A DNA stretch of 34,238 nucleotides, from positions 3,580 through 37,817 of the forward strand of contig DCIT01000030.1 in assembly GCA_002317145.1 (NCBI GenBank), given 5' to 3'. A program made the position numbers and the translations under genes. Position 1 is the stretch's first letter, and every line of letters begins with the position of its first letter. Below the pieces are notes generated by a model. That model was given only the letters and a program-made list of their open reading frames with translations, was not told the origin of the DNA and did not search any database. Of this stretch, positions 2,875 through 30,112 are shown in pieces. This DNA is from Bacillales bacterium UBA1719. GTDB taxonomy: Bacteria > Bacillota_I > Bacilli_A > RFN20 > CAG-826.

Positions 2875-5800
2875 TTAGAATTCTTGGACTGTATATACTC
2901 CACCCCAAGCTAAATTATTCCAATCATCACCAAATTTTTCTGATGTAAAAATAGCTGGGTTCTTTCCGCCTAAATCTTGTGTTTGATGATAGAAAACACC
3001 AGTGCCACTATGTGACCCTGGATGAGCACCATTCATTAAGCCGTTACAATCGATAGCACTACCAGCATAGTTGTACATGTCAAAATGTCCTTCACTATAT
3101 TGGAGCAATAAATAGTGTGCATTTTCAGTAGATGTGCATCTAATAGTACCATAATTATGAATAGTTAAATTACATGTACCCGTTGAACTAGTAATAGACA
3201 TACAATGTCTTTGACTAGAAGACACTAAACCATTATTAATAAATTCTTTTGTCACAGTTCCTTCAAAATTATCAATATTGAGTCCGCCAATTGTGCCATT
3301 ATTAGTGCATTTAGTTGATAAACCATTTAAATCAATTCCGTTAGTTATAGTTCCGTTATTTATAACTGAACTACCTTCACCTTTAATAGTTAAATGGCTA
3401 ATAGTCGCACCTTCAGCAACAGTGACAACAGTATTTTTAGAATTAATAGTAATATAAGCATTTGGAGCGTTGCTTAATGTAACATCTCCCATCGGTGCTT
3501 CAATATCTAAAGAAACAATATTACTAGGATTAGTAAATGTCTCAAATAATTTTGTGTCGGATTTAATAGTTAAATGACTTACTTCCGTAGCAATGTTATA
3601 TGTTCCAGGATTATTTACTTTAACATTATTGAATTCGCATATATGAGTTTTATATATTGAAGAAGTAAGGCCATCGAATAATTCATTTGTAGTAGCAAAT
3701 TCAACATTAGACATTTTTAAATCTTGCATATCAGCTGCAATTGTTGAAGCTCTACCTCCATCTGCTATTATTTTTCCGTTATTGACACAATTTTTAACTT
3801 CTTGAGTAAAATGAGAAGAGTTCGCTTCACCAGCGATAATTCCGGATTTAAATTTAGCCTTACCAATCAAATCTCCATTATTAATGCAATTAACAAATTC
3901 GCCTCTTCCTAAAGAACAGATTCCTGCCATATCATCAACCGTTTCTGCAGCATTATTAATTACTTGACCATTATTTGTTGTGTTTGCAATTAATTCAAGA
4001 CCTTGATGACCATAACCAACAATACCTGCTATATATTGAGGGCGTTTAGCTCCACCATCTGGATTTGTAGTTACTATTCCATTATTTACACATCCAATAA
4101 TACTTAAACTTTTATCAGTATCGCCACCATTTGTATAACCGCATAATCCACCTGCGCCGCCTACACCTGGACTTTCATTATTTAAACAAATAATTTTTGC
4201 GTTATTTGTTGTATTAACAATCGCTTGCCCAGAAGAACAGTCACCAATTCTACTTTGTGTATATCCAGATATACCGCCTACATGATAAACATCGCTTGTA
4301 ACAGTAACATCTGATCCAGTAGAGCAATTAATCATTGCACAACAAGATAAATCTCCTGCAAAGCCACCAACAGCTTTATATCCTTTTACAGTTCCTGATA
4401 AGAAATGAACATTTTCTATTCTTACAGCAAAAGCGGTTCCAGCAAGAGCTCCAACTTGCTTTTTCTTTGCAGATGCTTCTATCTCAAAATTTGAATTAGC
4501 AATATTTAAATTTTTAACAACACATGTGTATTTATCTTCAGTGATATTATCTTCATAGAACGCATTATCTTTCCAAACATGCGTTTTATTTTCAAAATTA
4601 AGGTTTTCCGTGCCTTCAATAACACCAAATAATCCGCAATTCGCTGTAGTTTGCTTGCAATTAATATTAGATATTGTCGAGTTACATCCATCAACATATC
4701 CTTTAAACTTATATGTTGAGTTACCAATTGGAGTAAAGTTTGGGGTATCGCTTAAATCAATATTTTTAGTAATTCTATAATATTTATCGGCATAAGAGGC
4801 AGCAGTTGTTTCGTTATTTACTTTACTTGAAAGATCATTTAAAGAAGCGGATGTTGAAATAGAAAACGGAGATTCTTTAGTTCCAAATCCGCCATTAAAG
4901 TCTCTTGTTTCTGGAATCGCTTCTTCTTTCTTCTTTACAATTGTTTGATCAGCAGATTCACTAGTAATATCTTCAACTGTTTCGGTAACATTATTAGTCT
5001 TAGCTACAGTACCAACATAAGAATCTTCTTTAGCATTAATCTTTACACCATCGATTTCAACAATAATCGAATTGATTTTAGCTTCAGGTTCAACAACTAG
5101 TTTTGCTTTACTTTTAACAACAACTTCGCCATCAACACTTCCGTGTTCATTATATGTTCCTTCAAAACTGTCAACGCTTAAAGAAGTAGCGACACCATAG
5201 TGATGTATATCCGTAACTGAACCTTTAATGTCTAAATCATTTCTATTTGTTACAACAACTGGTTTAAAATCGTTGCTAGTTTCAGCCTTTTCAAACTTTA
5301 ACTTATATTGCTTGTTGTATCCAACATCTAAGCTTGTATTAAATATTAATTCGTCCTTGTCATCATTAGCAAATTTAAAAACATTCTTCGCATTTAAATT
5401 ATTTATATTTTTGTTAATGGTTTTTTCTTTAATATAAGTTCCATAAACATTTGATGGATCGCTAATACTCTTGTCTAATACGTAATTATCAGAAAATTTA
5501 AAGACAGAACTTTTGTATTTAAATTCTTTTGCGGTATATGCAACAGATCCGTCTTTATTTAAAAGAACAAATTCACGATTTTCAGTATCGAATGCATACT
5601 CTTTATTTTGATCTTGAGTTTTTTGTTCTTCTAAATTAATCCCTTTGCTAGTCTTTATAAATTCAACAGCATCAAACAATGTTTTGATATTTGTTTCTTT
5701 AGCAATCAAATTATTTAATTCTGTAACATAAGTTACATCAGGATCTATTGGGGTTGGGCCTGGTTGAGGGCCTGGTTTTGGGAGATTTAAAACAATCGCG

Positions 5801-11888: not shown

Positions 11889-13451
11889 TTATTTCTTCTC
11901 CTTTATAGTTTCATTAATTATATAACTTGCTAATAATAATCCCGCAGTTGATGGTACAAATATCATTGATGTAATAACATTACCATTTTTTATAGGAACT
12001 TCATTAGAAGTTGCGACTTTAATTTTCCTAATATCTATTTTATCTTTCTTTAATAGTTCGCGTAGTTTTTTCGCTAATGGATCATCATGAGTCTTATCTA
12101 AAGTCGTAACTTCTAATTTAGTTAAGTTAAAACGATTACCCATTCCTAGTGATGAAATAAATTTAATTTTGTGTTTTAAACAATATTTAATTAAGGCAAT
12201 TTTAGATTTAGTTGAATCTATTGCATCAATAACAAAATCAAATTTATTAAAGTTAATATCTTTTAAATTGTTCTCATCAATAAATATATCTTTTATTTCT
12301 ACTTTAATATCTGGATTAATTTTATTTATTAATTCTTTCGCGACTTTAACTTTTGTTTTTCCAATATCTTTACTAGTGAATAATATTTGTCTATTTAAAT
12401 TAGAGGCATTCACTTTATCAGCATCATATAAATATAATTTATTAATACCAGTTCTTGCTAAAGCTTCAGCAGCGGTACCACCTACTCCACCAATTCCAAA
12501 TATCGCAACAGATAATTTATTAATCTTTTTTAAATTAGATTCTCCTACTAACGCTTTAGTTCTAGTAGATATATCATCCTTAGTTAAATCATTAATAATA
12601 TCTTTACTTGATGTTATCCATTTAAAATTATTTCCATATTGATAACGAATAAAAGTCATTTGTCTTTTCGCGTATTGGCGAGTGTCTATTTTAATTAATT
12701 CACTTATTTCTTTATTTGATAATTTTGGGTTTTGTATTATCTCTCGATACCCAATCGCGTTTAATGATTGTAAATCTTTTCCATATTTTTTTATTAAAGA
12801 TTTACATTCATTAATTAATCCATTATCAATCATTTTATCAACGCGATTATTAATGCGATTAATTAATATTTCTCTATTCATATCTATCGCGTATATATGA
12901 ACATCTTTAAAGATTATTTTATGTTTTTGTTTCGCTTCTATTTCTGTTTTAGTTTTATTAGTGGATAAATAAATAGATATCGCTCTTAAGACTCTTTTAC
13001 GATTATTAGGATGTATTCTTTTAGCTTCTTTAGGATCTATTTTAGTTAATTCTTTATGTAAATCTTCATTAGATAATTTTTCATATTTAGATAAATTAAC
13101 TTCTTTAATAGGTTTAGAGAAATCATAATCATATAACGCTGAACGGATATATAATCCTGATCCTCCGACTAAGACGATATTCTTTTTTTGTTTTATTAAT
13201 TCTTTAATAACCTTACGACAATCTTTTTGATATTCCGCGATTGAATAATTATCAGTAGGTTTTTTAATATCATATAAATGATGTTTAACTTTCTTTAAAT
13301 CTTCTTTATTTGGTTTAGCCGTTCCAATATCTAATTCTTTATATATTTGAAATGCATCAGCGTTTATAATTTCCGCATTAAAATATTTCGCGACTTCAAT
13401 CGCGATTTTACTTTTTGATGTACATGTCGGACCGGTTATAACAATTATCAT
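11889..13451 (-). CDS. miaA: Fusion protein: tRNA dimethylallyltransferase MiaA (N-terminal about 295 aa) plus a TcdA/CsdL-type E1-like tRNA ct6A dehydratase domain (C-terminal about 225 aa)
   Basis: N-terminal GPTCTSKS P-loop and MiaA core (QIYKELDIGTAKP, VGGSGLY). C-terminal FGIGGVGGTAAEALARTGINKLYLYDADKVNASNLNRQ Rossmann/ThiF motif. It is one uninterrupted 520-aa ORF. Confidence 0.85.
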   Translation of the reverse strand: MIIVITGPTCTSKSKIAIEVAKYFNAEIINADAFQIYKELDIGTAKPNKEDLKKVKHHLYDIKKPTDNYSIAEYQKDCRKVIKELIKQKKNIVLVGGSGLYIRSALYDYDFSKPIKEVNLSKYEKLSNEDLHKELTKIDPKEAKRIHPNNRKRVLRAISIYLSTNKTKTEIEAKQKHKIIFKDVHIYAIDMNREILINRINNRVDKMIDNGLINECKSLIKKYGKDLQSLNAIGYREIIQNPKLSNKEISELIKIDTRQYAKRQMTFIRYQYGNNFKWITSSKDIINDLTKDDISTRTKALVGESNLKKINKLSVAIFGIGGVGGTAAEALARTGINKLYLYDADKVNASNLNRQILFTSKDIGKTKVKVAKELINKINPDIKVEIKDIFIDENNLKDINFNKFDFVIDAIDSTKSKIALIKYCLKHKIKFISSLGMGNRFNLTKLEVTTLDKTHDDPLAKKLRELLKKDKIDIRKIKVATSNEVPIKNGNVITSMIFVPSTAGLLLASYIINETIKEKK

Positions 13452-20083: not shown

Positions 20084-21994
20084 TTATTTATAAGATGTAT
20101 TAGTCCAAGTGCCTTGTTTATTATTAACTTTTACTAAATCTGAATTAGCAAATAATAATCCTTCTCCCATCATATAGTTATAAGTTCCACTATTGAAGTT
20201 GAGATTAGTCATTTTAGAGTTCTTAGCTTGTTCAACATTAACGATATATTCAAGATTAGAAGTTAATGTTGAATCTTCAACAGTAATATTTAATTCAGCA
20301 TCATCATATTTATCTTTAGCTACATAAATAACTGAACCATCATAAAGTCTACCCGAATATTGTTCACCTGATCCCGTAGCAGTTAATTTAGTAGAGTTCT
20401 TTATACTTAATGTTCCTGATGTAGCGGTGATACAAGAAAGACCATTAATCTTACCGCCTTGGATATCAACAGTAGTTTCAGATGGGAAATATAAACAAGT
20501 ATTATTAGAAGAGGTTAATGTTCCTCCATAAAGATTCACCGTAGCTCCATTTAAATTTTCTTTTCCATATAAGCAGAAATCATTAGATTCAAGAACGCCG
20601 AATTCAACATTAATGTGAGAACCATTACCGACTGCGCCTACGCACCCATATGCTGTTTTATTTGAAGTTTCATTAACACAGGATATCTTTCCTCCATACA
20701 TTATGAAGTTAGCATCTTTTTTCACAGTAGCACCGATTTGACCTAAAACTGTAACAGCTGCTGCGACAGGTCTATCAGATAACTTTTCTGAGTTAGTGAC
20801 TGTTTGAGTAATTTTCCCACTGTTTAGCACTAAATTGCTAACTGGTATTTCTCCTTTTGAAGTTAATTTGTTCGCACCTGCAACGATAATTGAACAGTTA
20901 TTTAATGAAATGCCAGAATGTTCATCTAAAACACCTTGAGAATCTATGATATATAAACTTTTATCTACAACTTTATCATCAACAACATCAGATTGAATTC
21001 TTATAGCTTCAGAATAATTACTGCTCCCTTTATCAAAGTTAGTAAATGATAATTTAAAACCATTTAAATCAATGCATAAAGGACGACCAACAGTCAAAGC
21101 ACTAAGAGGGCTATCTAAAGTTCCTTCATATATAATATCGGATTCTAATCTCAAGAAAGACTCTAGATGAGTGCTAGCAGCCATACATTCTCTTAAATCA
21201 GTACCATTTGTAATAGATTTCTTATTTAATTTATAAGCAGTAGCATGCTTCTCAACAGGTTCATAATTTATTAATCCATAAACTTTAGAATCTGCTTCAT
21301 ATGTTAATTTAACATCCCCACTATTTTTTTCAGCATTCTCAAACATATCTAATGCACATACTTCATCATTAGAAACATATACCTCACCTTTAACAGCTTT
21401 CATATACGCTGATTCACCATGCTCATTATATTTAGCGCATTCAGTAACAATAACGTTAGTGGCGTCTTCATAGTGAGTAATAGTTTGAGTAGGTGCTAAT
21501 ACAGAGAAGTAATCGCAATACGCCCTAACTAAAACATTTCTGTTATCTCTAGATTCATTCGCATATGCAATATTACGAATATCCATATGTGTACCAGCAT
21601 CAAATCCAGTAGTAATTAATAACGCATCCATTGCAGGAGCTTCTTTTAATAAATACTGAGAATACTTTGAATTAGGATTATACGTAGTTACAAATTTAAA
21701 GTAATCTAATGTATCACTGCTTGGAGTATAACCATTAGATTTAGTGACTATCTTATCTCCTTCCATAATGACAAACTTTTTATTAACTGAGTCGTAAGCA
21801 TATTCTTTCTTATCATCTAATTTTAATTTAGCGAGTTTATCTCCGACTAAATTAACAGCATCATAACAAGTATGAACACTATCAGCTTTCTCTGTTAATA
21901 ACTTATTAGCTTCGTTTAATATATTTGAGTTATTATTGCACCCTGCCATAAAAGGAAGAGCCATTAAACTTATTATAAATAAATGTCTTTTCAT
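20084..21994 (-). CDS. Surface lipoprotein, beta-helix-like, paralog of the upstream gene
   Basis: Start chosen at MKRHLFIISLMALPFMAGC (lipobox) with AAGGAGGA 5 nt upstream. The maximal ORF extends to 22024. Confidence 0.8.
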   Translation of the reverse strand: MKRHLFIISLMALPFMAGCNNNSNILNEANKLLTEKADSVHTCYDAVNLVGDKLAKLKLDDKKEYAYDSVNKKFVIMEGDKIVTKSNGYTPSSDTLDYFKFVTTYNPNSKYSQYLLKEAPAMDALLITTGFDAGTHMDIRNIAYANESRDNRNVLVRAYCDYFSVLAPTQTITHYEDATNVIVTECAKYNEHGESAYMKAVKGEVYVSNDEVCALDMFENAEKNSGDVKLTYEADSKVYGLINYEPVEKHATAYKLNKKSITNGTDLRECMAASTHLESFLRLESDIIYEGTLDSPLSALTVGRPLCIDLNGFKLSFTNFDKGSSNYSEAIRIQSDVVDDKVVDKSLYIIDSQGVLDEHSGISLNNCSIIVAGANKLTSKGEIPVSNLVLNSGKITQTVTNSEKLSDRPVAAAVTVLGQIGATVKKDANFIMYGGKISCVNETSNKTAYGCVGAVGNGSHINVEFGVLESNDFCLYGKENLNGATVNLYGGTLTSSNNTCLYFPSETTVDIQGGKINGLSCITATSGTLSIKNSTKLTATGSGEQYSGRLYDGSVIYVAKDKYDDAELNITVEDSTLTSNLEYIVNVEQAKNSKMTNLNFNSGTYNYMMGEGLLFANSDLVKVNNKQGTWTNTSYK

Positions 21995-22005
21995 AACTAT
22001 CCTCC

Positions 22006-24087
22006 TTATGCTATTTGATTCCATGTTCCGCCGTTAATAGAACATTCAAAATAATCTTTATACGATTCTGTTAAATCTGATGCATATTTGTCTTTCTTGT
22101 AGTTAAATACTCCATCTTCAACTGTAACAGATGCTTTGCTCAATATAAATTTACTTTCTTTAACATATCCAGAATTTTTAATAATGTAAGCATTTTTACT
22201 AGTCATAGTTGCATACTTAATATTAATATTTAAAGGTACATCAATAGCGCCTTGATAATATCTGTTAGATTCCATAAATATTACTGAACCATCAGCAGCA
22301 CTTCCAGAATCTCCAGCTGTAGCAGATGGATTATCACCAATAGCATTAAATACACCACCATAAATATTTATTGTTCCAGCTTTAGCATTAATACAAGAAG
22401 GCCCTGTAATAGTTGCTCCGGTTATATTTACTTCTCCTGCTTGAGGGAAAAATAATGGAGTGTAATTATATCCAGTTGATTCATGAGTGCCATCATCATA
22501 AGCCGGCTCTTTTCCACCTGTTAAATAACCACCAGTAATATTAATTACAGTCTTACCGTATCTATCAACGTTAGGAGCAGCCGTGCCTTGACAGCTAATG
22601 CAATAATGGAATGAATCTAAATCTCCATATATCATGTTAACAATTGCTCCATTGCCTCTTGGCTGGATGCATTTGCAGGCAATATGTTTACGCCAAGTAT
22701 CACCAGTTTTTATTACTGTATCGGCCTTACTTCCCCACTCAGTTTTTATATATCCGCCGTACATATAAAATGCAGAATGCCTTTCGCTTTCTCTATCCGT
22801 ATTGCTTACATTCCCCATCACTAATACAGCTGGTCTATTTCTATAGCTACCAGTTAAATTTGATGTACATTTGACATCATGTATCTTACCTGAATTCATA
22901 TAAAAATTAACAGGTTTATTTGCATCGGTGCTGCCTTCTACTATGATGCTGCAATCTAATAAATTAATACCTGATCTAGGATATAAGGAGCTTTGAGTGT
23001 CAACCAAAAATGCGTTTATAGATGAATCGCCTTTAACAAGTATTCCAGGATAATAAGGTGTTGAATCGCCATCATATTGGACTCCTTTCGATTGTCCGCA
23101 ATCAAATGTTATGCTTCTTCCATTTAAATCAAAAAATAAATCTCTTTTAAATTGGATATAACCTTCTTTAGTAACTGTTTCGCCAGATTTTTCTTCTTTA
23201 AGAACAATATCTCTAGCCTCAGTAGTTAAACGATAGAAATTATATTCAGTATTATCTAAATAGCTTTGTATAGTATTTGCAGTTAAAGTAGGATCATTAA
23301 TCTCTTTTATCTTCGCTGTACTTTGCGCGCGTACACTATCCGCATTCACTCTCATTAATATATTACTGCCTTCTGATTGTTTAATGTTTACAGAAGATCC
23401 ATTTGGAATTTCAAATAAATCTGAATATGATCCAGATTCTAAATAAACATTCCCTCCTGCAGCTTGAATATAACAACAAGATCCATATTCATGATAACTA
23501 CCACTTAATGTTGAAGGAATAAATACGTTATTTGAACTTCCGTAGTGATAAATATTATCTTTAGTAGTTGAAATATTTAAATAGTCACAACTAACATTTA
23601 ACAAAATATCTTTTTCGGTATCAGTAGAATTAAAATAAGTAATATTTTTTACATTATTATTCTCACCCATATCTAATCCAGTAGTGACTACTAATAAATC
23701 AGAACCAGCAAAATTTCTTGTTAAGTATTGAGAGTAGGTTGATCTACTATCATAGACATCACTAAATTTAAATATGTGATAAGTATTACTATTTTTCTTA
23801 TATCCTTTTGGGGCGTAAGTAACATTATCACCATTCATTATTGTGAATTGTTTTGTATCAATATCAAAAGCAATATTGTTACTTGTTTTCTTTAAGGTAT
23901 ATCCATTAATATCTACACCTTTCTCATAAGCATAAGTAACAGCAGAAGATGGAGTGGTAATATTATTCTTTTCACTCTCTATAGCTTTGTTTGCTTGATC
24001 AATAAATTTGTTATCGGCATCATTGTTACATCCAATAAGAAAACTCACTGCGGCTATTGATAACACCGCTAAACTTCTAATTCTCAT
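22006..24087 (-). CDS. Surface lipoprotein, beta-helix-like
   Basis: Start chosen at MRIRSLAVLSIAAVSFLIGC (lipobox), 9 nt after a G7 SD-like tract. The maximal ORF extends to 24096. The head domain and the C-terminal G-rich beta-helix are paralogous to 20084..21994. Confidence 0.8.
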   Translation of the reverse strand: MRIRSLAVLSIAAVSFLIGCNNDADNKFIDQANKAIESEKNNITTPSSAVTYAYEKGVDINGYTLKKTSNNIAFDIDTKQFTIMNGDNVTYAPKGYKKNSNTYHIFKFSDVYDSRSTYSQYLTRNFAGSDLLVVTTGLDMGENNNVKNITYFNSTDTEKDILLNVSCDYLNISTTKDNIYHYGSSNNVFIPSTLSGSYHEYGSCCYIQAAGGNVYLESGSYSDLFEIPNGSSVNIKQSEGSNILMRVNADSVRAQSTAKIKEINDPTLTANTIQSYLDNTEYNFYRLTTEARDIVLKEEKSGETVTKEGYIQFKRDLFFDLNGRSITFDCGQSKGVQYDGDSTPYYPGILVKGDSSINAFLVDTQSSLYPRSGINLLDCSIIVEGSTDANKPVNFYMNSGKIHDVKCTSNLTGSYRNRPAVLVMGNVSNTDRESERHSAFYMYGGYIKTEWGSKADTVIKTGDTWRKHIACKCIQPRGNGAIVNMIYGDLDSFHYCISCQGTAAPNVDRYGKTVINITGGYLTGGKEPAYDDGTHESTGYNYTPLFFPQAGEVNITGATITGPSCINAKAGTINIYGGVFNAIGDNPSATAGDSGSAADGSVIFMESNRYYQGAIDVPLNINIKYATMTSKNAYIIKNSGYVKESKFILSKASVTVEDGVFNYKKDKYASDLTESYKDYFECSINGGTWNQIA

Positions 24088-24116
24088 AATTTTCATCCCC
24101 CCCTAAATTATTTAAA

Positions 24117-24767
24117 TTATTTTATATAACTCTTAATCTTACTTTTATAGTCAGATATGTGATTGAAGAATATTTCTTTAAATTCATTAACTGCGATACT
24201 AGGATCTTCATGGTCAAAGCGATTATCTACTCTTAAGAATGGTTCATATATCTCAGCGAATTTCATTAATAATTCTTCTGGGATATTTATCTTTCCTAAT
24301 TTAGATGCAATTGCGAATGCTTTCATTAATCTATTTCTAATTGGTTCTACATATTCATATATGCATGTCTTAATATATAAGACTTCTTCTGGAGTAGCAT
24401 CTGGTAACATAAGATAAGTATTCTTAAATTTCTTATCACTCTTTTTAATAGTGGATTGTAAATAATGATCTAATCTAATACATCCATCTAAGTCTCCAAA
24501 GTCTGCAATATAAAGCATCTCTAAATAAGATACTTTCTCTCCGTTAGTACCTATATCAAGTAATGAGTATTGTAAAACGCAGTTAAAATCTTTAACCATG
24601 TTCTTAAATCCTGTCGCATCCTTTGAATCATTTAACTTCTTTGATTTATCGTTAAAAATATCTTTGCGCGCTTTTAATGGAAGCTTAAGATAGAGTTTAT
24701 ACAACTCTTCTATTAATGCTTCATAGGCAACCTTGCCTCTTCTAAAAATATCCGGTGTTTGTTCCAT
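24117..24767 (-). CDS. Hypothetical cytoplasmic protein (216 aa), no recognisable domain
   Basis: Long ORF with no TM helix or signal peptide. It sits 20 nt upstream of the lipoprotein genes with no terminator between them. Confidence 0.6.
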   Translation of the reverse strand: MEQTPDIFRRGKVAYEALIEELYKLYLKLPLKARKDIFNDKSKKLNDSKDATGFKNMVKDFNCVLQYSLLDIGTNGEKVSYLEMLYIADFGDLDGCIRLDHYLQSTIKKSDKKFKNTYLMLPDATPEEVLYIKTCIYEYVEPIRNRLMKAFAIASKLGKINIPEELLMKFAEIYEPFLRVDNRFDHEDPSIAVNEFKEIFFNHISDYKSKIKSYIK

Positions 24768-24840: not shown

Positions 24841-25899
24841 TTATTTATCTCCTTCTATATAAGCAGTAAATAAAACGAATTCTTTAAACCTTGGTAATGC
24901 TAATTTAATACTTCCTCTTTTATCAGAGATTATTAAACCTGAAAATAGAAGTGATTTTCTATAAACTTGAAATTCATTGTTTTTCATTTTTAATTTATTT
25001 AATAATTCAGAATGTGACATCTCTTTATTGTTCGCTAAAGTTTCAATTACTAATCTTTCTTTTTTAGATAACTCTTTCCAAATTTGAGAATATGAACGAT
25101 CTTCCATGATAATGTCAAACTCATCTTTAATTTTATCGGTGATTTCATATTTCTTTTCTTTAAATAATAGACTACCTAATATTTGAAATGCGTATGCATA
25201 TCCACATGTGAACATAGCAAAATTAATAGATGTTTCTAAATCAACTTTAAAAATCTCTTTATATGTTGTTGCAATTGCACGTATACTTAAAGGCTCAACT
25301 AATATTTTAGGAGCTCTTAACAAAAATGTAAGTGACTTATCACTATATAAAGAACTTACATTGTTGTATATTCCTGTCGCTATAAAATACAAAGAATATC
25401 CTTGCCTAATTAAACTTTGATAAGCTTGAACAAAAGCTTTTACATAATCGTTTTTAGCAATATCATCTACTGTAAATAAGACTTTGATGTTCTTCCTTTT
25501 TAAATATTCAAGCATTTGTTTTAATAAAGAAAAAATGTCTTTGATTTTTTTATCTCCGATTAATGAGAAAGAAACGCCTTTAAAGGAAAATGAAAATTCT
25601 TTTTTTATAAATAAATTTTTGATTTTAGCAGAATCATATAAGCGCACAGCAGCTTGTTCAAGCATTTCCATGCAAGGATTAAGATCGATGCTTATCCAAT
25701 TATCCATTGAATCAAATTCTTTAATAATCTGAGCTAATAAAACTGTTTTACCACATCCTCTAGGACCAGTAATTATGTATGATTCCACATTTGGATTTTT
25801 ATTATTAAATGTATTGATGACGTGATCAATAGTATTTTGTCTATAGATTAACTTTAATGGTGTTTTTCCAAACGTAATATTAAATGGGTTGTCTTTCAT
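24841..25899 (-). CDS. P-loop ATPase (archaeal-ATPase / Orc1-Cdc6-like AAA family) with a C-terminal winged-helix domain
   Basis: Walker A GPRGCGKT, Walker B VLFTVDD, and a C-terminal SHSELLNKL...YRKSLLFSGLI wHTH-like region. Start chosen at MKDNPFNITFGK. The maximal ORF (to 26034) runs through the recA terminator. An alternative start is at 25965. Confidence 0.75.
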   Translation of the reverse strand: MKDNPFNITFGKTPLKLIYRQNTIDHVINTFNNKNPNVESYIITGPRGCGKTVLLAQIIKEFDSMDNWISIDLNPCMEMLEQAAVRLYDSAKIKNLFIKKEFSFSFKGVSFSLIGDKKIKDIFSLLKQMLEYLKRKNIKVLFTVDDIAKNDYVKAFVQAYQSLIRQGYSLYFIATGIYNNVSSLYSDKSLTFLLRAPKILVEPLSIRAIATTYKEIFKVDLETSINFAMFTCGYAYAFQILGSLLFKEKKYEITDKIKDEFDIIMEDRSYSQIWKELSKKERLVIETLANNKEMSHSELLNKLKMKNNEFQVYRKSLLFSGLIISDKRGSIKLALPRFKEFVLFTAYIEGDK

Positions 25900-25935
25900 A
25901 TTTTCTATTTCCCAAATAATATTGTAATCGATATT

Positions 25936-26008
25936 TTGTCTTTTTAAAAATTTTTTGTCTTTCATTGTCTTTTGTTGTCTTTCATTGTCAATTAAAAAAT
26001 ATTTTGTC
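25936..26008 (-). repeat. Phased array of six GACAA direct repeats (spacing 19-10-10-10-19 bp) upstream of the ATPase gene
   Basis: Plus-strand TTGTC at 26004, 25985, 25975, 25965, 25955 and 25936, with a seventh at 25889 inside the start region. The 15-mer GACAATGAAAGACAA is duplicated exactly. Confidence 0.85.
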
Positions 26009-26013
26009 ATCCT

Positions 26014-26044
26014 TATAATAAGAAATAAGGGCATTAGCCCTTAT
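26014..26044 (-). terminator. recA terminator
   Basis: Minus strand: ATAAGGGC-TAAT-GCCCTTAT followed by TTCTTATTAT. Confidence 0.8.
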
Positions 26045-26048
26045 CATC

Positions 26049-27044
26049 TTATTCTTTTTTATCAGTAGGTTTTTTAATTCTTTGGAGAAGGTCGTCCGCT
26101 AGACCTAAATGCGATTCTAAATATCCAATTGCAGTATCTCTACCTTGACCGATTTTCTCTCCATCAAGTTCATACCATGAACCAGATTTTTTAATAAATC
26201 CACGATCAATCGCTAAATCTAATATCTCACCTTTCATAGATATGCCTTTACCATAAATAATATCAATAGTGCATGTCTTAAATGGTGGCGCGACTTTATT
26301 CTTTACTACTTTTACTTTGACAGTATTTCCGACTATATCATTGCCATTCTTAATAGCTTCTAATCTTCTAATATCAATTCTAACTGTGGCATAGAATTTT
26401 AATGCACGTCCTCCAGTAGTAGTCTCTGGATTACCATACATGACTCCAACTTTTTCTCTTAATTGATTAATAAAGATAACAGTTGTTTCTGTTTTGTTTA
26501 AGATACCCGCAAGTTTACGCATAGCTTTACTCATTAAGCGTGCTTGTAATCCAACTTGGTTATCTGACATAACTCCATCAAGTTCTGCTTGAGGGACTAA
26601 TGCTGCGACTGAATCAACTACAATAATTGCTATCTCTCCAGATTGAGCAAGCATCTCAGTAATTTCTAGAGCTTCTTCTCCACATCCAGGTTGAGAGAGT
26701 ATTAATTCATCAATATCGACTCCTAAGTTTTTAGCGTAAATAGGATCAATAGAATGTTCGGCATCAATGAATGCTGCTCTTCCACCTTTCTTTTGAGCTT
26801 CCGCTATCGCATGTAATGCTAAAGTAGTTTTGCCACTACTCTCAGGACCGAATATTTCTATTATTCTTCCTTTTGGATATCCTCCAACACCTAAAGTTTC
26901 ATCAAGTAATAATGAACCGCTAGAAATAGTGTCAACATCAACATTAGGACGTTCTCCTAATTTCATGACACTGCCTTTACCATATATCTTTTCGATATTC
27001 TTTAAAGCAGATTCTAGACTTATATTTTTTTCTTCTTTTGACAT
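26049..27044 (-). CDS. recA: Recombinase RecA
   Basis: 331 aa with GPESSGKTT Walker [11 protein letters not shown] Walker B and [22 protein letters not shown]. Confidence 0.97.
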
Positions 27045-27087
27045 AATGTCCTCCTAATTGTTAATTAATGAAACTCACTTATTTTTA

Positions 27088-27567
27088 CTACGCGATTTCC
27101 TTTAATAACAAATAGATTGCATCCTCTACTACTGCTTTTCTTATCGAATTTCTATTGCCTTTATAGACTTTAGTGAAATTAATTATCTTATTTTTATTTG
27201 GTTTACATAATATAGCAATATGTGCTCTACCAACTTCGGCCTTGCCTTTTTCTTTAGATGGACCAGCGTTACCAGTAAACGAAATAACATAATCAGTTTT
27301 AAGTAACTTATAACCTTCTTTTACCATTGCTTCCGCAACTTGTTTACTTACTACTCCATATTTATCTATATATCCTTTTGATATCTTTAATAAACTAGTT
27401 TTAAAAGAAGATTGATAAGTTACTAATCCTCCTTTAACTGTTTTAGATGCGCCTGGAATAGAGGCTAAAGTAGAAATAAATAATCCCGCAGTTAAAGATT
27501 CAACACTACCAATCGTGTATCCTTTTTTAATTAAAGTATTAACTAATTTATTTTCTCTTTTTTCCAT
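27088..27567 (-). CDS. CinA C-terminal-domain protein (PncC-family nicotinamide-nucleotide amidohydrolase)
   Basis: 159 aa with SVESLTAGL and ISFTGNAGP motifs, in the conserved position between pgsA and recA. Confidence 0.85.
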   Translation of the reverse strand: MEKRENKLVNTLIKKGYTIGSVESLTAGLFISTLASIPGASKTVKGGLVTYQSSFKTSLLKISKGYIDKYGVVSKQVAEAMVKEGYKLLKTDYVISFTGNAGPSKEKGKAEVGRAHIAILCKPNKNKIINFTKVYKGNRNSIRKAVVEDAIYLLLKEIA

Positions 27568-28213
27568 CTTCTTTAAATACTTTACGATTTTGAATTACGT
27601 ATATTATTCCGCTAACTAATGAAACTACAGTTGTTAAGTATGCTAAGAATGAAACGATTCTTAAATACTTGCCCCAACCAATATCAAAATAGGTGAAAGG
27701 CCAACCATTAAGTAAGATTAAAGGAATAGTGATCATTTGACATACAGTCTTTGCTTTGCCAAATATATTCGCAGCAATAACAACATTCTTTTTTGCTGCC
27801 ACAAATCTTAAACAATCAACTACAATATCTCTAGCAATCATAACAATTACTAAATAAACAGGAATAACGTATTGGTCTCCTCCTACATAACATCTATCGT
27901 ATATGCATAAGAAAATAAGCATTGAATTAACTAATAATTTATCAGCAACCGGGTCTAAGAACTTACCTAAGTCTGTTACTTGATTCCATTTTCTTGCTAA
28001 TTTTCCATCTATCATATCTGTAATTGCCGCTAATATAAAAATGATACAAACAACTAGATATACAGGATTAATTCCTGTTTTACCTATATATGTAGGAATC
28101 GAAGAGCAAAATATTGGATTAGCTAAACATACAATTTCAAAAATTGCTAATCCTAATAGCATAGCAATTATTGCAATAATTCTACTAACAGTAATTTTTG
28201 TTGGAATATTCAT
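27548..28213 (-). CDS. pgsA: CDP-diacylglycerol--glycerol-3-phosphate 3-phosphatidyltransferase
   Basis: DGKLAR....T.LGKFLDPVADK CDP-alcohol phosphatidyltransferase motif and multiple TM helices. The ATG at 28213 forms an ATGA overlap with the upstream gene's stop. The maximal ORF begins at a TTG at 28219. Confidence 0.9.
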   Translation of the reverse strand: MNIPTKITVSRIIAIIAMLLGLAIFEIVCLANPIFCSSIPTYIGKTGINPVYLVVCIIFILAAITDMIDGKLARKWNQVTDLGKFLDPVADKLLVNSMLIFLCIYDRCYVGGDQYVIPVYLVIVMIARDIVVDCLRFVAAKKNVVIAANIFGKAKTVCQMITIPLILLNGWPFTYFDIGWGKYLRIVSFLAYLTTVVSLVSGIIYVIQNRKVFKEDGKKRK

Positions 28214-28710
28214 ATGCAATTATTATAACTATTATCATGCTTGTTTATTAATCTTTTTAATATTTTTACGCCTTCTGTTGTATAGTCGTTATTTTTATAA
28301 TTAATATTGTCAATAATTCTAATAGCAGCCTCTTCCAATCCGAATGTATGATAAATATTATAATATTTAATTATATCTTTACCTGGTAACAATTTATAAA
28401 CATGTTTGCTTGGTAAATTATATAAAAAAGATATACATCCATAAATATTGCCAATCCAATACATTTGATTCCTGCTATATGTATTTTTTACACCATAATT
28501 ATTGTATTGTTTATTAAGTTCATAAATAGGTTCATTAATAGTGTTACTTGTAGCTAAATATGTTTTGTCGAAATATGTTTTTGAAACATCATTAAAAATA
28601 AATCTTCGGATAAACATATCAGAACTAAATTTAGATAACTCTATTGATTGTTCAAATATTTTACCAATAGTTTTGCATAATTTACGTTCATTGCTATCTA
28701 ATTTTCTCAT
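28210..28710 (-). CDS. DUF3791-like protein (166 aa), partner of the HTH/DUF3990-like gene
   Basis: The C-terminal half (IIKYYNIYHTFGLEEAAIRIIDNI) resembles my recollection of the DUF3791 signature. There are ATGA overlaps at both ends. Confidence 0.55.
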   Translation of the reverse strand: MRKLDSNERKLCKTIGKIFEQSIELSKFSSDMFIRRFIFNDVSKTYFDKTYLATSNTINEPIYELNKQYNNYGVKNTYSRNQMYWIGNIYGCISFLYNLPSKHVYKLLPGKDIIKYYNIYHTFGLEEAAIRIIDNINYKNNDYTTEGVKILKRLINKHDNSYNNCI

Positions 28711-29558
28711 ACAAGTATCTCGTCTATATAACGTCCCTTATTTCTATATTTGACTCTAGCATTCTTAACAGTTTCTTGAGATTCTATGTTCAAATCTAAT
28801 CTTTCATTCACTAAACTATTTTTTTCATTCGTAGACAAATATTGATCCTTTAGTAATTTTAATTTATTCAAACCTCTTTCAGTTCTAATGACATACTGCA
28901 TACCTAGGTTAGTAGCAACTAAAGAATGCTGGCATTGTTGATCTGTTATTTCACCATTTACAAATTCATCGATAATATCAAACATTCTATTATCTGCAAT
29001 CGGTGCTATTATCACATCTATTCCTTTTAATTTATTAACTAGTTTTTTTAAGTAATTTGTTTTTTCGTACTTGTTTAGTAATCCCCTATAATAAGATATT
29101 GTAATCATCCAATCTGTATTAACTTGAAACCTATAAACACGCAATGTATCTAAATTTAAACTGTATGCATAAACCTTATTAGATTTACTATTAGCAATGT
29201 AAATAGCAGCTTGTTTAAAGGTTTCTCCTAAATAGAAGCCAACACCAAAATCATTTTCTTTTTTAGAATGTTTAAAATCTAATGGCATTATTAATTTATT
29301 CTTGCAACCATGAAATAATAATTTTTTATTTTGCTTATTACATTCTTCCAAAAAATAGCGTTCAAATATTTCATTAAAACGTATGTTCTTTGAAAATGCA
29401 TAGTTGTATATTTTATCTATATTGTTATTTTCTATTATGTTTTTTTTCTTTTCCCATCTTTTAACACTTAAAACAGGAATACTTAGATTATCCGCTAATT
29501 CTTTTTGAGTTTGGTGCAGTAACTCTCTTAATATTTTTAATTCTTTATCAACAAACAT
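28707..29558 (-). CDS. XRE-type HTH fused to a DUF3990-like domain with a PARP-like H-Y-Q motif set
   Basis: N-terminal LRELLHQTQKELADNLSIPVLSVKRWEK helix-turn-helix. This is followed by LLFHGC (H83), FGVGFYLGE (Y109) and GMQYVIRTE (Q221). SD AAGGAG lies 5 nt upstream of the ATG. Confidence 0.6.
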   Translation of the reverse strand: MFVDKELKILRELLHQTQKELADNLSIPVLSVKRWEKKKNIIENNNIDKIYNYAFSKNIRFNEIFERYFLEECNKQNKKLLFHGCKNKLIMPLDFKHSKKENDFGVGFYLGETFKQAAIYIANSKSNKVYAYSLNLDTLRVYRFQVNTDWMITISYYRGLLNKYEKTNYLKKLVNKLKGIDVIIAPIADNRMFDIIDEFVNGEITDQQCQHSLVATNLGMQYVIRTERGLNKLKLLKDQYLSTNEKNSLVNERLDLNIESQETVKNARVKYRNKGRYIDEILV

Positions 29559-29604
29559 ATAATCTCCTTAATTATAAATTAAAATATAAAATATACAACT
29601 AATT

Positions 29605-29620
29605 AGTATCAAATGATACT
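29605..29620. promoter_or_regulatory. Perfect 7-2-7 palindrome AGTATCA-AA-TGATACT upstream of the HTH gene (putative operator)
   Basis: Read directly from the sequence. It lies about 45 nt upstream of the start codon, in the only intergenic space available for the operon promoter. Confidence 0.45.
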
Positions 29621-29684
29621 TTTTACTTTAATTGTGTATTTATGTAAATAAACAATAACACAAATAAGATATAACGGAGTTTCA

Positions 29685-29710
29685 ATAAAAAAATCTACTT
29701 AACAGTAGAT
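29685..29710 (-). terminator. rnpB terminator
   Basis: Minus strand: ATCTACT-GTTA-AGTAGAT followed by TTTTTTTATT. Confidence 0.75.
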
Positions 29711-29717
29711 TCCTTTA

Positions 29718-30060
29718 TTACTCCAATCCGATAAGCCATGTTCTGTCGAGGGTGACAATTTATCTAAGTATATCGCTATACTTGCTAATTAAACTTCAGT
29801 TTGTTTAATTAACTTCCCTTACCATATAATTTAGGTTTCTCGCTTGCGGGGTTTACCAACGTTTCACTCCTATAATTTCTTATAGGCTCGTCTCTGTGGC
29901 ACTTTATGGAACTTATTATCCTTTAGGGATGCGGTTCCGCCGTTACATGTTCCCATATACCTAGCCTTATTTTTTAGACTAGCACAATCACTACACTCAT
30001 CGCAGAATGTGCGAGCATGGACTTTCCTCTAGTTAGACTAGCAGTCACCTAGATTGAAGT
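29718..30060 (-). ncRNA. rnpB: RNase P RNA (bacterial type B-like)
   Basis: The minus strand contains GAGGAAAGTCCATGCTCGCAC near the 5' end, AAAGTGCCACAGAGACGA, GGTAAACCCCGCAAGCGAGAAACC, and ACAGAACATGGCTTATCGG near the 3' end. P1 pairing occurs between ACTTCAATC and GGATTGGAGT. The region is markedly GC-richer than its surroundings. End coordinates are good to within about 5 nt. Confidence 0.9.
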
Positions 30061-30084
30061 AGATAAATAATATACTAAGAAAAA

Positions 30085-30112
30085 TAAAAGGGCAAATTTT
30101 CATTGCCCTCTT
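30085..30112 (-). terminator. Terminator of the ABC transporter operon
   Basis: Minus strand: AGGGCAA-TGAAAAT-TTGCCCT followed by TTTTATTTTT. Confidence 0.8.

Follow-up and report, generated by a model that had tools for sequence, protein, structure and literature searches.

DUF3990 is a protein domain that Pfam places in its clan of ADP-ribosyltransferases (ARTs), CL0084 (PMC7955679). It is a recognisable C-terminal domain of some Rhs proteins of type VI secretion (T6SS), where the gene for the DUF3990 tip is followed by a downstream immunity gene (PMC4524185, PMC10763514). PADLOC lists a two-component candidate system, PDC-M42 (A and B), on which we found no paper. In type II toxin–antitoxin (TA) modules it is usually the antitoxin that binds DNA. 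We have analysed a 34,238-nt stretch of Bacillales bacterium UBA1719 (contig DCIT01000030.1, positions 3,580 to 37,817; "the window" refers to this whole stretch), in which a gene for a DUF3990 domain fused to an XRE-type helix-turn-helix (HTH) and the gene of an all-helical partner protein are found between rnpB and the pgsA-cinA-recA genes. The two form a widespread, obligately paired, toxin–antitoxin-like cassette whose family is catalogued (Pfam DUF3990, PADLOC PDC-M42, NCBI names) and uncharacterised. With a probability of about one half, we consider the cassette to be an autonomous, autoregulated TA or defence-candidate module consisting of an NAD-dependent ART-fold toxin and its antitoxin. 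The cassette itself is laid out as follows.

28707-29558, minus strand: gene 1, HTH-DUF3990 fusion of 283 aa (open reading frame with an ATG start)
29564-29569, minus strand: Shine–Dalgarno sequence AAGGAG of gene 1 (read from the sequence)
28210-28710, minus strand: gene 2, all-helical partner and candidate antitoxin of 166 aa (open reading frame)
28707-28710, minus strand: ATGA overlap of the gene 1 stop codon with the gene 2 start codon (read from the sequence)

An ART-like protein and its obligate partner

Out of 185,579 species-representative genomes (one per species), at least 435 contain relatives of the cassette, mostly those of gut Erysipelotrichales, Acholeplasmatales/Anaeroplasma, RF39-type Bacilli, Lachnospiraceae and Oscillospirales; the DUF3990 domain as such makes up 896 clusters at 50% identity. 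The partner gene lies immediately after the HTH-DUF3990 gene in 86/86 loci, and all but two of them have the same 4-nt overlap after correction for contig ends and mis-called starts. This neighbourhood census bears out the conserved pairing with a small partner that had been proposed in a preliminary description of the DNA, made from the window's sequence alone, and a tightly linked, co-directional gene pair in varied contexts is what one expects of a type II TA module. Both proteins match the PADLOC candidate models, the partner as PDC-M42B (E 1.7e-7) and protein 1 as PDC-M42A (E 7.5e-16), and their genes overlap. Together with the name "antitoxin" that NCBI gives to some partner homologs, these matches make the analogy with TA and abortive infection systems, drawn at the outset, a reasonable one.

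Protein 1 is composed of an XRE-type HTH (about residues 1-75), the DUF3990 ART-like domain (about residues 76-240) and a long C-terminal helix, and it carries a conserved G-x-Y-I-D-E-I-L tail at its C-terminus. The DUF3990 profile (PF13151) aligns to residues 81-234 over positions 3-151 of its 152, with an E-value of 5.9e-27 and 94.6 bits where the gathering cut-off is 32.2. Other Pfam matches are weak, namely HTH_3 (residues 7-50, 17.2 bits, below cut-off) and ART-PolyVal (15.5 bits), and PHROGs returned weak HTH matches only. In the AlphaFold2 model (pLDDT 93.2, pTM 0.88) the protein begins with a five-helix HTH, followed by a mixed alpha/beta domain and the long C-terminal helix. The architecture of an N-terminal XRE HTH joined to DUF3990, as first described, is upheld.

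A database search yielded 545 homologs of protein 1, and the best 120 of these are nearly all 282-285 aa long, 44-55% identical and covered over their full length. In 31 full-length homologs residues H83, G84, Y109, Y120 and Q221 are invariant, and likewise the motif P-I-A-D-N-x-M-F-D. H83, Y109 and Q221 stay invariant when stand-alone DUF3990 proteins, plasmid-borne ones included, are added to the alignment; the H-Y-Q combination is therefore a hallmark of the whole family and not a peculiarity of protein 1. The three motifs LLFHGC, FGVGFYLGE and MQYVIRT, which had been singled out beforehand as ART-like, are present in the protein. In the model the three residues are each found on a strand: H83-G84 end strand 79-84, Y109 lies in strand 108-111 and Q221 in strand 220-224.

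The fold agrees with this assignment. A Foldseek search of the Protein Data Bank (PDB) with the model, as had been suggested in the preliminary description, ranked tankyrase first, followed by the RES toxin VPA0770 (the third-best match) and diphtheria-type toxins, with probabilities of 0.72-0.99 and E-values of only ~1e-2. In the viral library BFVD the model matched a DUF3990-like protein (5e-9), an iridovirus PARP-like protein (7e-4) and several phage ART-PolyVal proteins. The H-G pair and the Y-x10-Y (G-F-Y-x10-Y) of protein 1 are spaced in the same way as in PARP1 (Y896/Y907) and diphtheria toxin (Y54/Y65). When the PDB was searched with a sequence profile of the ART domain alone, the weak tankyrase matches of the full-length profile were lost. 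At the level of sequence the evidence for homology to PARP is thus marginal, and it is the Pfam clan, the fold search and the motif spacing that carry the case. The model, the fold matches and the clan place the protein within the ART split-beta-sheet fold of the H-Y-E clade, and the model puts H83 and Y109 where the NAD pocket has its His on strand 1 and its Tyr on strand 2. On strand 5, on the other hand, the catalytic Glu of the clade is replaced by Q221, which is invariant in the 31 fused and in the stand-alone homologs. That protein 1 is ART-like with a Gln at the catalytic Glu position, as originally assigned, is well supported by the alignments and the predicted structure, even with PDB E-values as weak as these, and the protein may use NAD.

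The partner is predicted to be all alpha (AlphaFold2, pLDDT 82). Foldseek found no match for it in the PDB (best E 0.9), and a profile search of PDB sequences gave nothing meaningful. Among its 1360 homologs are those which NCBI calls "antitoxin", a label for which we found no accounting model in NCBIfam. Alignments show the residues F19, S29, S30, F33, R35, R36, W85, G87, H121 and R131 to be invariant and the C-terminal tail to be unconserved. The attribution of the partner to the DUF3791 family (PF12668) is weak: the match stays at 16.6 bits, below the gathering cut-off of 25, and only 7 of 26 partner homologs have so much as a weak match to this family, the best with an E-value of 0.003. 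Aligned by hhalign with a true DUF3791 protein (67 aa), the partner reaches a probability of 12% (E 0.0023, 26 columns), and the alignment is confined to a short Y-x-x-Y-H...R-I-M stretch. The partner is clearly homologous to the product of a 142-aa gene downstream of the stand-alone DUF3990 gene of Treponema (hhalign 96.8%).

We classified 83 partner ORFs by length. Short proteins with no extra domain make up 43 of them, the one in the window included. Another 35 are 240-280 aa long; a C-terminal PPase-like domain is present in 33 of these and an ASCH domain in one. The remaining five have about 300 aa or more, and four of them carry a GNAT domain. The 33 C-terminal domains resemble a truncated inorganic pyrophosphatase (PPase), and GNAT is an acetyltransferase domain; modular partners are found for example at L005:7299-7658, L024:2685-3164 and L072:5894-6253 (L numbers designate the loci compared).

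This modularity raises the question of which of the two proteins would be the toxin. The toxic component might be the partner, whose C-terminal enzyme domains vary, and the HTH-DUF3990 protein might be a DNA-binding antitoxin and repressor, neutralising the partner by binding or modifying it in a type VII-like logic. Such an arrangement would conform to the rule that the DNA-binding component of a type II system is normally the antitoxin, and the invariant polar residues S29, S30, R35, R36, H121 and R131 of the partner as well as its GNAT, PPase-like and ASCH fusions would be well explained. It accords poorly with the 43/83 partner ORFs, that of the window among them, which have no extra domain, with the NCBI label "antitoxin" on partner homologs and with the occurrence of DUF3990 at the tips of Rhs toxins. 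In one genome, at L039:5953-6855, an intact partner gene accompanies an HTH-DUF3990 gene that is broken into ORFs of 142 and 133 aa, which is the decay pattern expected of a toxin gene. On balance we consider a reversal of the roles quite improbable, and in what follows the HTH-DUF3990 protein is treated as the putative toxin.

A putative 32-bp operator over the cassette promoter

The upstream region of gene 1 had been described as containing a perfect 16-bp palindrome at 29605-29620. The repeat reads AGTATCA-TT-TGATACT and consists of two 7-bp arms around a non-palindromic TT centre; it is thus not a perfect 16-mer. By itself the 7+2+7 repeat is within chance, as ~18% of shuffled 160-nt upstream regions hold arms of at least 7 bp, and we rejected the idea that the palindrome is significant on its own. 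The role of an operator which had been ascribed to it is nevertheless supported, both by its conservation in L090, a locus whose protein 1 is 72% identical to that of the window, and by an element common to the family. The features concerned are the following.

29597-29628, minus strand: 32-bp operator-like element AAGTA-AAA-AGTATCATTTGATACT-AAT-TAGTT, with the repeat at 29605-29620 as its core
29607-29612 and 29583-29588, minus strand: promoter candidate P1, TTGATA and TATATT with an 18-nt spacer, its -35 hexamer inside the inverted repeat
29593-29598 and 29571-29576, minus strand: promoter candidate P2, TTGTAT and TATAAT with a 16-nt spacer, read from the alignment and abutting the inverted repeat

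Between the window and L090 the operator block is perfectly conserved while the flanks have diverged; in L090 it takes the form AACTA-AAA-AGTATCATTTGATACT-AAA-TAGTT, with symmetric outer arms. Across the family, the element AACTT-N22-AAGTT occurs in 49/81 unique upstream regions, always with a length of 32 bp, compared to 0.4 in shuffled sequences, and the 6-mers ACAAGT/ACTTGT are present in 48/82 upstream regions where 5 would be expected. The element typically covers the -35 to -10 region, and in the subgroup nearest to the window it is centred on a CATTTG-type palindrome with a 7+2+7 layout. From the family motif and the conservation in L090 it follows that the window repeat forms the core of a family operator copy that has diverged. 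In the family element the centres of the two half-sites lie 27 bp apart, and this implies a dimer in which the HTH domains are set far from each other. In the recognition-helix region the window subclade has VLSVKRW in place of the consensus ETINRW, a change that would fit the altered operator half-sites, in two sequences only. Elsewhere in the family (homolog loci L003-L086) the AACTT-N22-AAGTT element is often duplicated in tandem, for instance at L024:2100-2235.

Of the two promoter candidates, P1 is the best match to the consensus in the region 26000-30100, with 10/12 positions, and both hexamers of P2 are nearly conserved in L090. Given the position of this candidate operator, the HTH of protein 1 would repress the cassette promoter.

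A fixed operator is also what one would expect if protein 1 were a ligand-sensing transcription factor and no toxin at all. Its ART-like domain would then be a non-catalytic sensor of NAD+, ADP-ribose or a similar ligand which tunes the binding of the HTH to the 32-bp operator, and the partner a co-regulator or a metabolising enzyme. The invariant H, G, Y and Y of the NAD pocket combined with a replaced catalytic Glu would make good sense in such a protein, just as the fusion to an HTH and the conserved operator would. The mostly housekeeping nature of the neighbouring genes can be cited in its favour, and so can the PPase-like, GNAT and ASCH fusions of the partner, which suggest small-molecule or nucleotide chemistry. 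A regulator should have something to regulate, however, and the operator has no conserved target apart from the cassette's own promoter; the neighbours are unconserved, so that no regulon is evident. The patchy distribution of the cassette, which can be present in several copies, is equally difficult to accommodate, and the same H-Y-Q domain is found devoid of an HTH at the tips of Rhs toxins and inside restriction-modification (R-M) and defence loci. We therefore regard a purely sensory function as unlikely.

Insertion between rnpB and pgsA

The preliminary description saw the two genes as functionally wired into the operon that encodes RecA. Genes 1 and 2 were both found on the minus strand at the positions given above, and the two ATGA overlaps, between the cassette genes and between gene 2 and pgsA, can be read directly from the sequence; on the basis of these overlaps gene 1, gene 2 and pgsA are probably coupled translationally. 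The surroundings of the cassette are composed of the following features.

29727-30056, minus strand: rnpB, RNase P RNA class B (Rfam RF00011, 245 bits), the upstream border of the insertion
29684-29719, minus strand: hairpin and T-run after rnpB, likely the rnpB terminator (inverted repeat I3, AATCTACT-GTTA-AGTAGATT, then TTTTTTATT)
28210-28213, minus strand: ATGA overlap of the gene 2 stop codon with the pgsA start codon, the junction that the insertion made (read from the sequence)
27548-28213, minus strand: pgsA (Pfam CDP-OH_P_transf)
27088-27567, minus strand: cinA (Pfam CinA)
26049-27044, minus strand: recA (RecA families)
26024-26045, minus strand: terminator-like hairpin after recA (scan for terminator-like sites)

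pgsA probably starts with the ATG at 28213, since it is from the equivalent codon that the PgsA proteins of relatives begin, with MNIPTKIT or MNLPTKIT; the TTG at 28219, given as the pgsA start by the ORF lister, is an upstream alternative.

To place this arrangement in context, the closest relatives of the window's recA were taken from metagenomes, and 13 of them were scanned for the arrangement of rnpB and pgsA (within L091-L109). Those at 66-77% identity have kept pgsA-cinA-recA and lack the cassette. In 12/13 of those scanned, rnpB ends 13-33 nt before the start codon of pgsA with no cassette in between, and the gap contains a Shine–Dalgarno sequence only and no hairpin. It leaves no room for a promoter (e.g. 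L100:4433-4830, L095:4494-4880). This suggests that in the clade of these relatives rnpB and pgsA-cinA-recA may be transcribed together and then processed. In the window the same gap holds a hairpin terminator, a promoter region and two genes, and the partner's C-terminal tail, which is poorly conserved, extends to the old start codon of pgsA. The hairpin on the rnpB side (29684-29719) is conserved in L090, and a strongly AT-rich spacer of ~125 nt separates it from gene 1. Since rnpB abuts pgsA in 12 of the 13 relatives scanned and no cassette is found there, the cassette was inserted with a terminator and a promoter of its own. As judged from this comparison of sequences, its presence between rnpB and pgsA is a lineage-specific insertion and the linkage to RecA a local accident.

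A sequence scan found no terminator-like site between 29558 and 26045. Because the genes overlap and no such site intervenes, expression of recA probably depends on the cassette promoter, and pgsA-cinA-recA would now most likely be carried on the autoregulated transcript of the cassette and no longer on that of rnpB. A candidate promoter before pgsA, at 28222-28251 (10/12 positions), proved unusable either way, since this AT-rich DNA contains fewer such matches (12) than its shuffled versions do (26).

The preliminary description had put forward the idea of a RecA-integrated module, an NAD-dependent, DNA-binding modifier tying DNA damage or phage sensing to pgsA-cinA-recA. Within this genome the overlapping genes and the lack of a terminator-like site from the cassette to recA are in agreement with it, the same insertion is found in three contigs of the organism, and L090 likewise has its cassette after rnpB. 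The comparison with other genomes is not: pgsA, cinA or recA was found within 6 kb of the homolog cassettes in 0/86 loci, 12/13 of the scanned recA relatives have rnpB-pgsA-cinA-recA and no cassette, and an unconserved partner tail at the junction is what one would expect of an insertion scar. RecA integration as a general property is thus largely refuted, and we hold a functional integration to be highly improbable. The value of the window is in this respect corrective, the coupling to recA being an accident of insertion. Locally the insertion may still be of consequence, as an essential lipid-synthesis gene and recA appear to have become dependent on the autoregulated promoter of a selfish cassette. 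The window can be seen as a clear case of a cassette inserting into a core operon and probably taking over its transcription.

The remainder of the window is ordinary chromosomal core, with rny, miaB, miaA, fhs, mgtE and fakA, and its long ORFs close properly under translation table 11. The GC content of the cassette (23-26%) compares to 30.6% for the window, and its GC content at third codon positions (GC3) resembles that of the neighbours; base composition gives no usable signal of transfer for the cassette. Directly after recA, at 24841-26034 on the minus strand, lies the gene of a 397-aa STAND/ATPase_2-like P-loop protein with a weak match to the PADLOC candidate PDC-S01 (E 3e-6), and after it a 216-aa ORF at 24117-24767 with no family match. 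Between recA and rny (20084-24096, minus strand) two adjacent large ORFs of 646 and 696 aa have no Pfam match, the longer one with a lipoprotein-like signal at its start (…LIGCNN). An ORF of 520 aa at 11889-13451 on the minus strand combines MiaA (IPP transferase) and ThiF-family domains in one polypeptide, an unusual fusion. In L087, from the same organism, a RelB-family antitoxin gene (929-1198) and a PBECR4-domain gene (3316-3834) lie beyond the upper end of the window, at a distance of a few kb upstream from the ABC transporter genes flanking rnpB.

A model for the cassette and its relation to known systems

We have combined these data in a model. Gene 1 would encode an NAD+-binding ART-fold effector of the DUF3990 family with an H-Y-Q centre, fused to an XRE HTH. 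Probably as a dimer, the effector would bind through its HTH to the 32-bp inverted-repeat operator over its own promoter and thereby repress the operon. The helical partner encoded by gene 2, translationally coupled to gene 1, would restrain the effector, either by binding or possibly by enzymatic reversal of the effector's product. Should the partner be lost or titrated, for example upon phage infection or when expression is blocked, the effector would modify a cellular target with NAD+ and growth would be arrested. According to the model, the short spacer between rnpB and pgsA (13-33 nt in relatives) received the cassette together with the rnpB terminator and the cassette's own promoter, and pgsA-cinA-recA would ride on the cassette transcript as a by-product of the insertion, which is not the purpose of the module.

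The anatomy of a type II TA or defence-candidate module is deduced from the paired and coupled genes, the operator at their own promoter, the patchy distribution, a domain known from toxin tips and the presence of both PADLOC components; the toxicity of protein 1 and its neutralisation by the partner would be in keeping with it. For a toxic potential of the domain speak its use as the C-terminal domain of Rhs proteins and the location of stand-alone DUF3990 genes on plasmids, inside a type I R-M operon or beside a ToxN fragment and a HEPN gene. The cassette can also be multi-copy: two tandem copies are found in L067, and L014 and L031 come from one metagenome-assembled genome.

Several observations weigh against this interpretation. 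In classical H-Y-E enzymes a change of the catalytic Glu to Gln strongly reduces transfer, and here the canonical Glu is invariably Gln. The fold E-values in the PDB are weak (~1e-2), and the searchable literature shows no activity for any DUF3990 protein. A toxin which carries the DNA-binding domain of the operon would be atypical for a type II TA system. The partner is large, has invariant polar residues and in about half of the homologs carries enzyme-like domains, which exceeds the needs of a passive antitoxin. The phage and plasmid collections yielded stand-alone DUF3990 genes that are distantly related and nothing close to the fusion protein. Finally, the flanking genes are mostly housekeeping, and the ~10% that match PADLOC models do so chiefly with candidate PDC systems and generic helicase models.

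The neighbourhoods deserve a closer description since a test for enrichment in defence islands had been proposed. Beyond the partner no neighbour is conserved, 140 flanking ORFs representing 143 Pfam families. The commonest family is AAA_14/DUF4143 (PADLOC candidate PDC-S01) with 6-7 of the 140 neighbours, and there are a few Fic and Schlafen-like genes; the rest are ribosomal, transporter and biosynthetic genes. Any enrichment in defence islands is thus weak. On a plasmid of Moraxella osloensis (NZ_CP069435.1; L172:948-4697) the hsdM and hsdS genes of a type I R-M operon are separated by three others, encoding a stand-alone DUF3990 protein, a protein of 83 aa and a true DUF3791 protein, and all four junctions from hsdM to hsdS overlap by 4 nt.

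If the TA interpretation is true, gut Firmicutes and Mollicutes-like bacteria possess in this cassette a widespread ART-fold TA or defence-candidate module with three unusual features: the effector carries the DNA-binding domain of the operon, the catalytic Glu is always a Gln and the fold of the partner is unmatched. The family-wide 32-bp operator AACTT-N22-AAGTT would provide an immediate experimental handle. A more far-reaching proposal, which we regard as doubtful, is that HTH-DUF3990 proteins constitute a new class of nucleic-acid-directed, NAD-dependent modifiers which are positioned by their HTH and use an H-Y-Q chemistry unlike that of H-Y-E enzymes. The helical partner, for which there is no solved structural relative, would then be a new reversing or controlling enzyme, sometimes extended by a PPase-like, GNAT or ASCH domain, and the module would have captured the transcriptional control of pgsA-cinA-recA in this lineage.

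How does the cassette, understood as a putative TA or defence-candidate module, compare with systems already described? It is closest to DUF3990 and PDC-M42, as the window proteins match both PDC-M42 components, the ART-like domain exceeds the Pfam cut-off by a wide margin and H, Y and Q are invariant in the fused and the stand-alone forms. The partner of a stand-alone Treponema DUF3990 is also homologous to that of the window. It departs from DUF3990 and PDC-M42 as catalogued by its N-terminal XRE HTH and the 32-bp operator. We found no published description, in the searchable literature, of the HTH-fused subfamily, of its fixed 32-bp operator or of the modular partner.

With Xre-RES (MbcTA; VPA0770-VPA0769, PDB 8GUG) the cassette shares an NAD+-using toxin fold of the ART superfamily and an operon of two genes that includes an XRE HTH, which in the cassette would serve autoregulation. 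In Xre-RES, however, the HTH resides in the antitoxin, which is encoded first, while in the window it is fused to the ART-like protein; the window protein has no RES-domain match in Pfam, its link to these toxins being the fold resemblance to VPA0770 only, and the fold of its partner matches nothing in the PDB. DarT-DarG likewise combines an ART toxin of the H-Y-E clade (DarT) with a dedicated partner. The target of DarT is DNA, and a DNA-binding ART would be conceivable for the window protein too, given its HTH. DarT itself has no HTH, whereas the window protein does and has a Gln for the catalytic Glu; neither protein of the cassette has a DarT or macrodomain match in Pfam, and the partner is all-helical.

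The Rhs/T6SS toxins, such as Serratia Rhs5-CT and Enterobacter RhsA, carry the same Pfam domain as their predicted toxic tip. Unlike the window protein, Rhs proteins are secreted and have no HTH, and their small immunity proteins are unrelated to the partner. Phage ART-PolyVal proteins and the catalytic domains of PARPs (tankyrase, iridovirus 100L), lastly, share with protein 1 the fold and the H-G ... Y-x10-Y signature. Here the sequence similarity is marginal, and the third catalytic position of the window protein is occupied by Gln and not by Glu.

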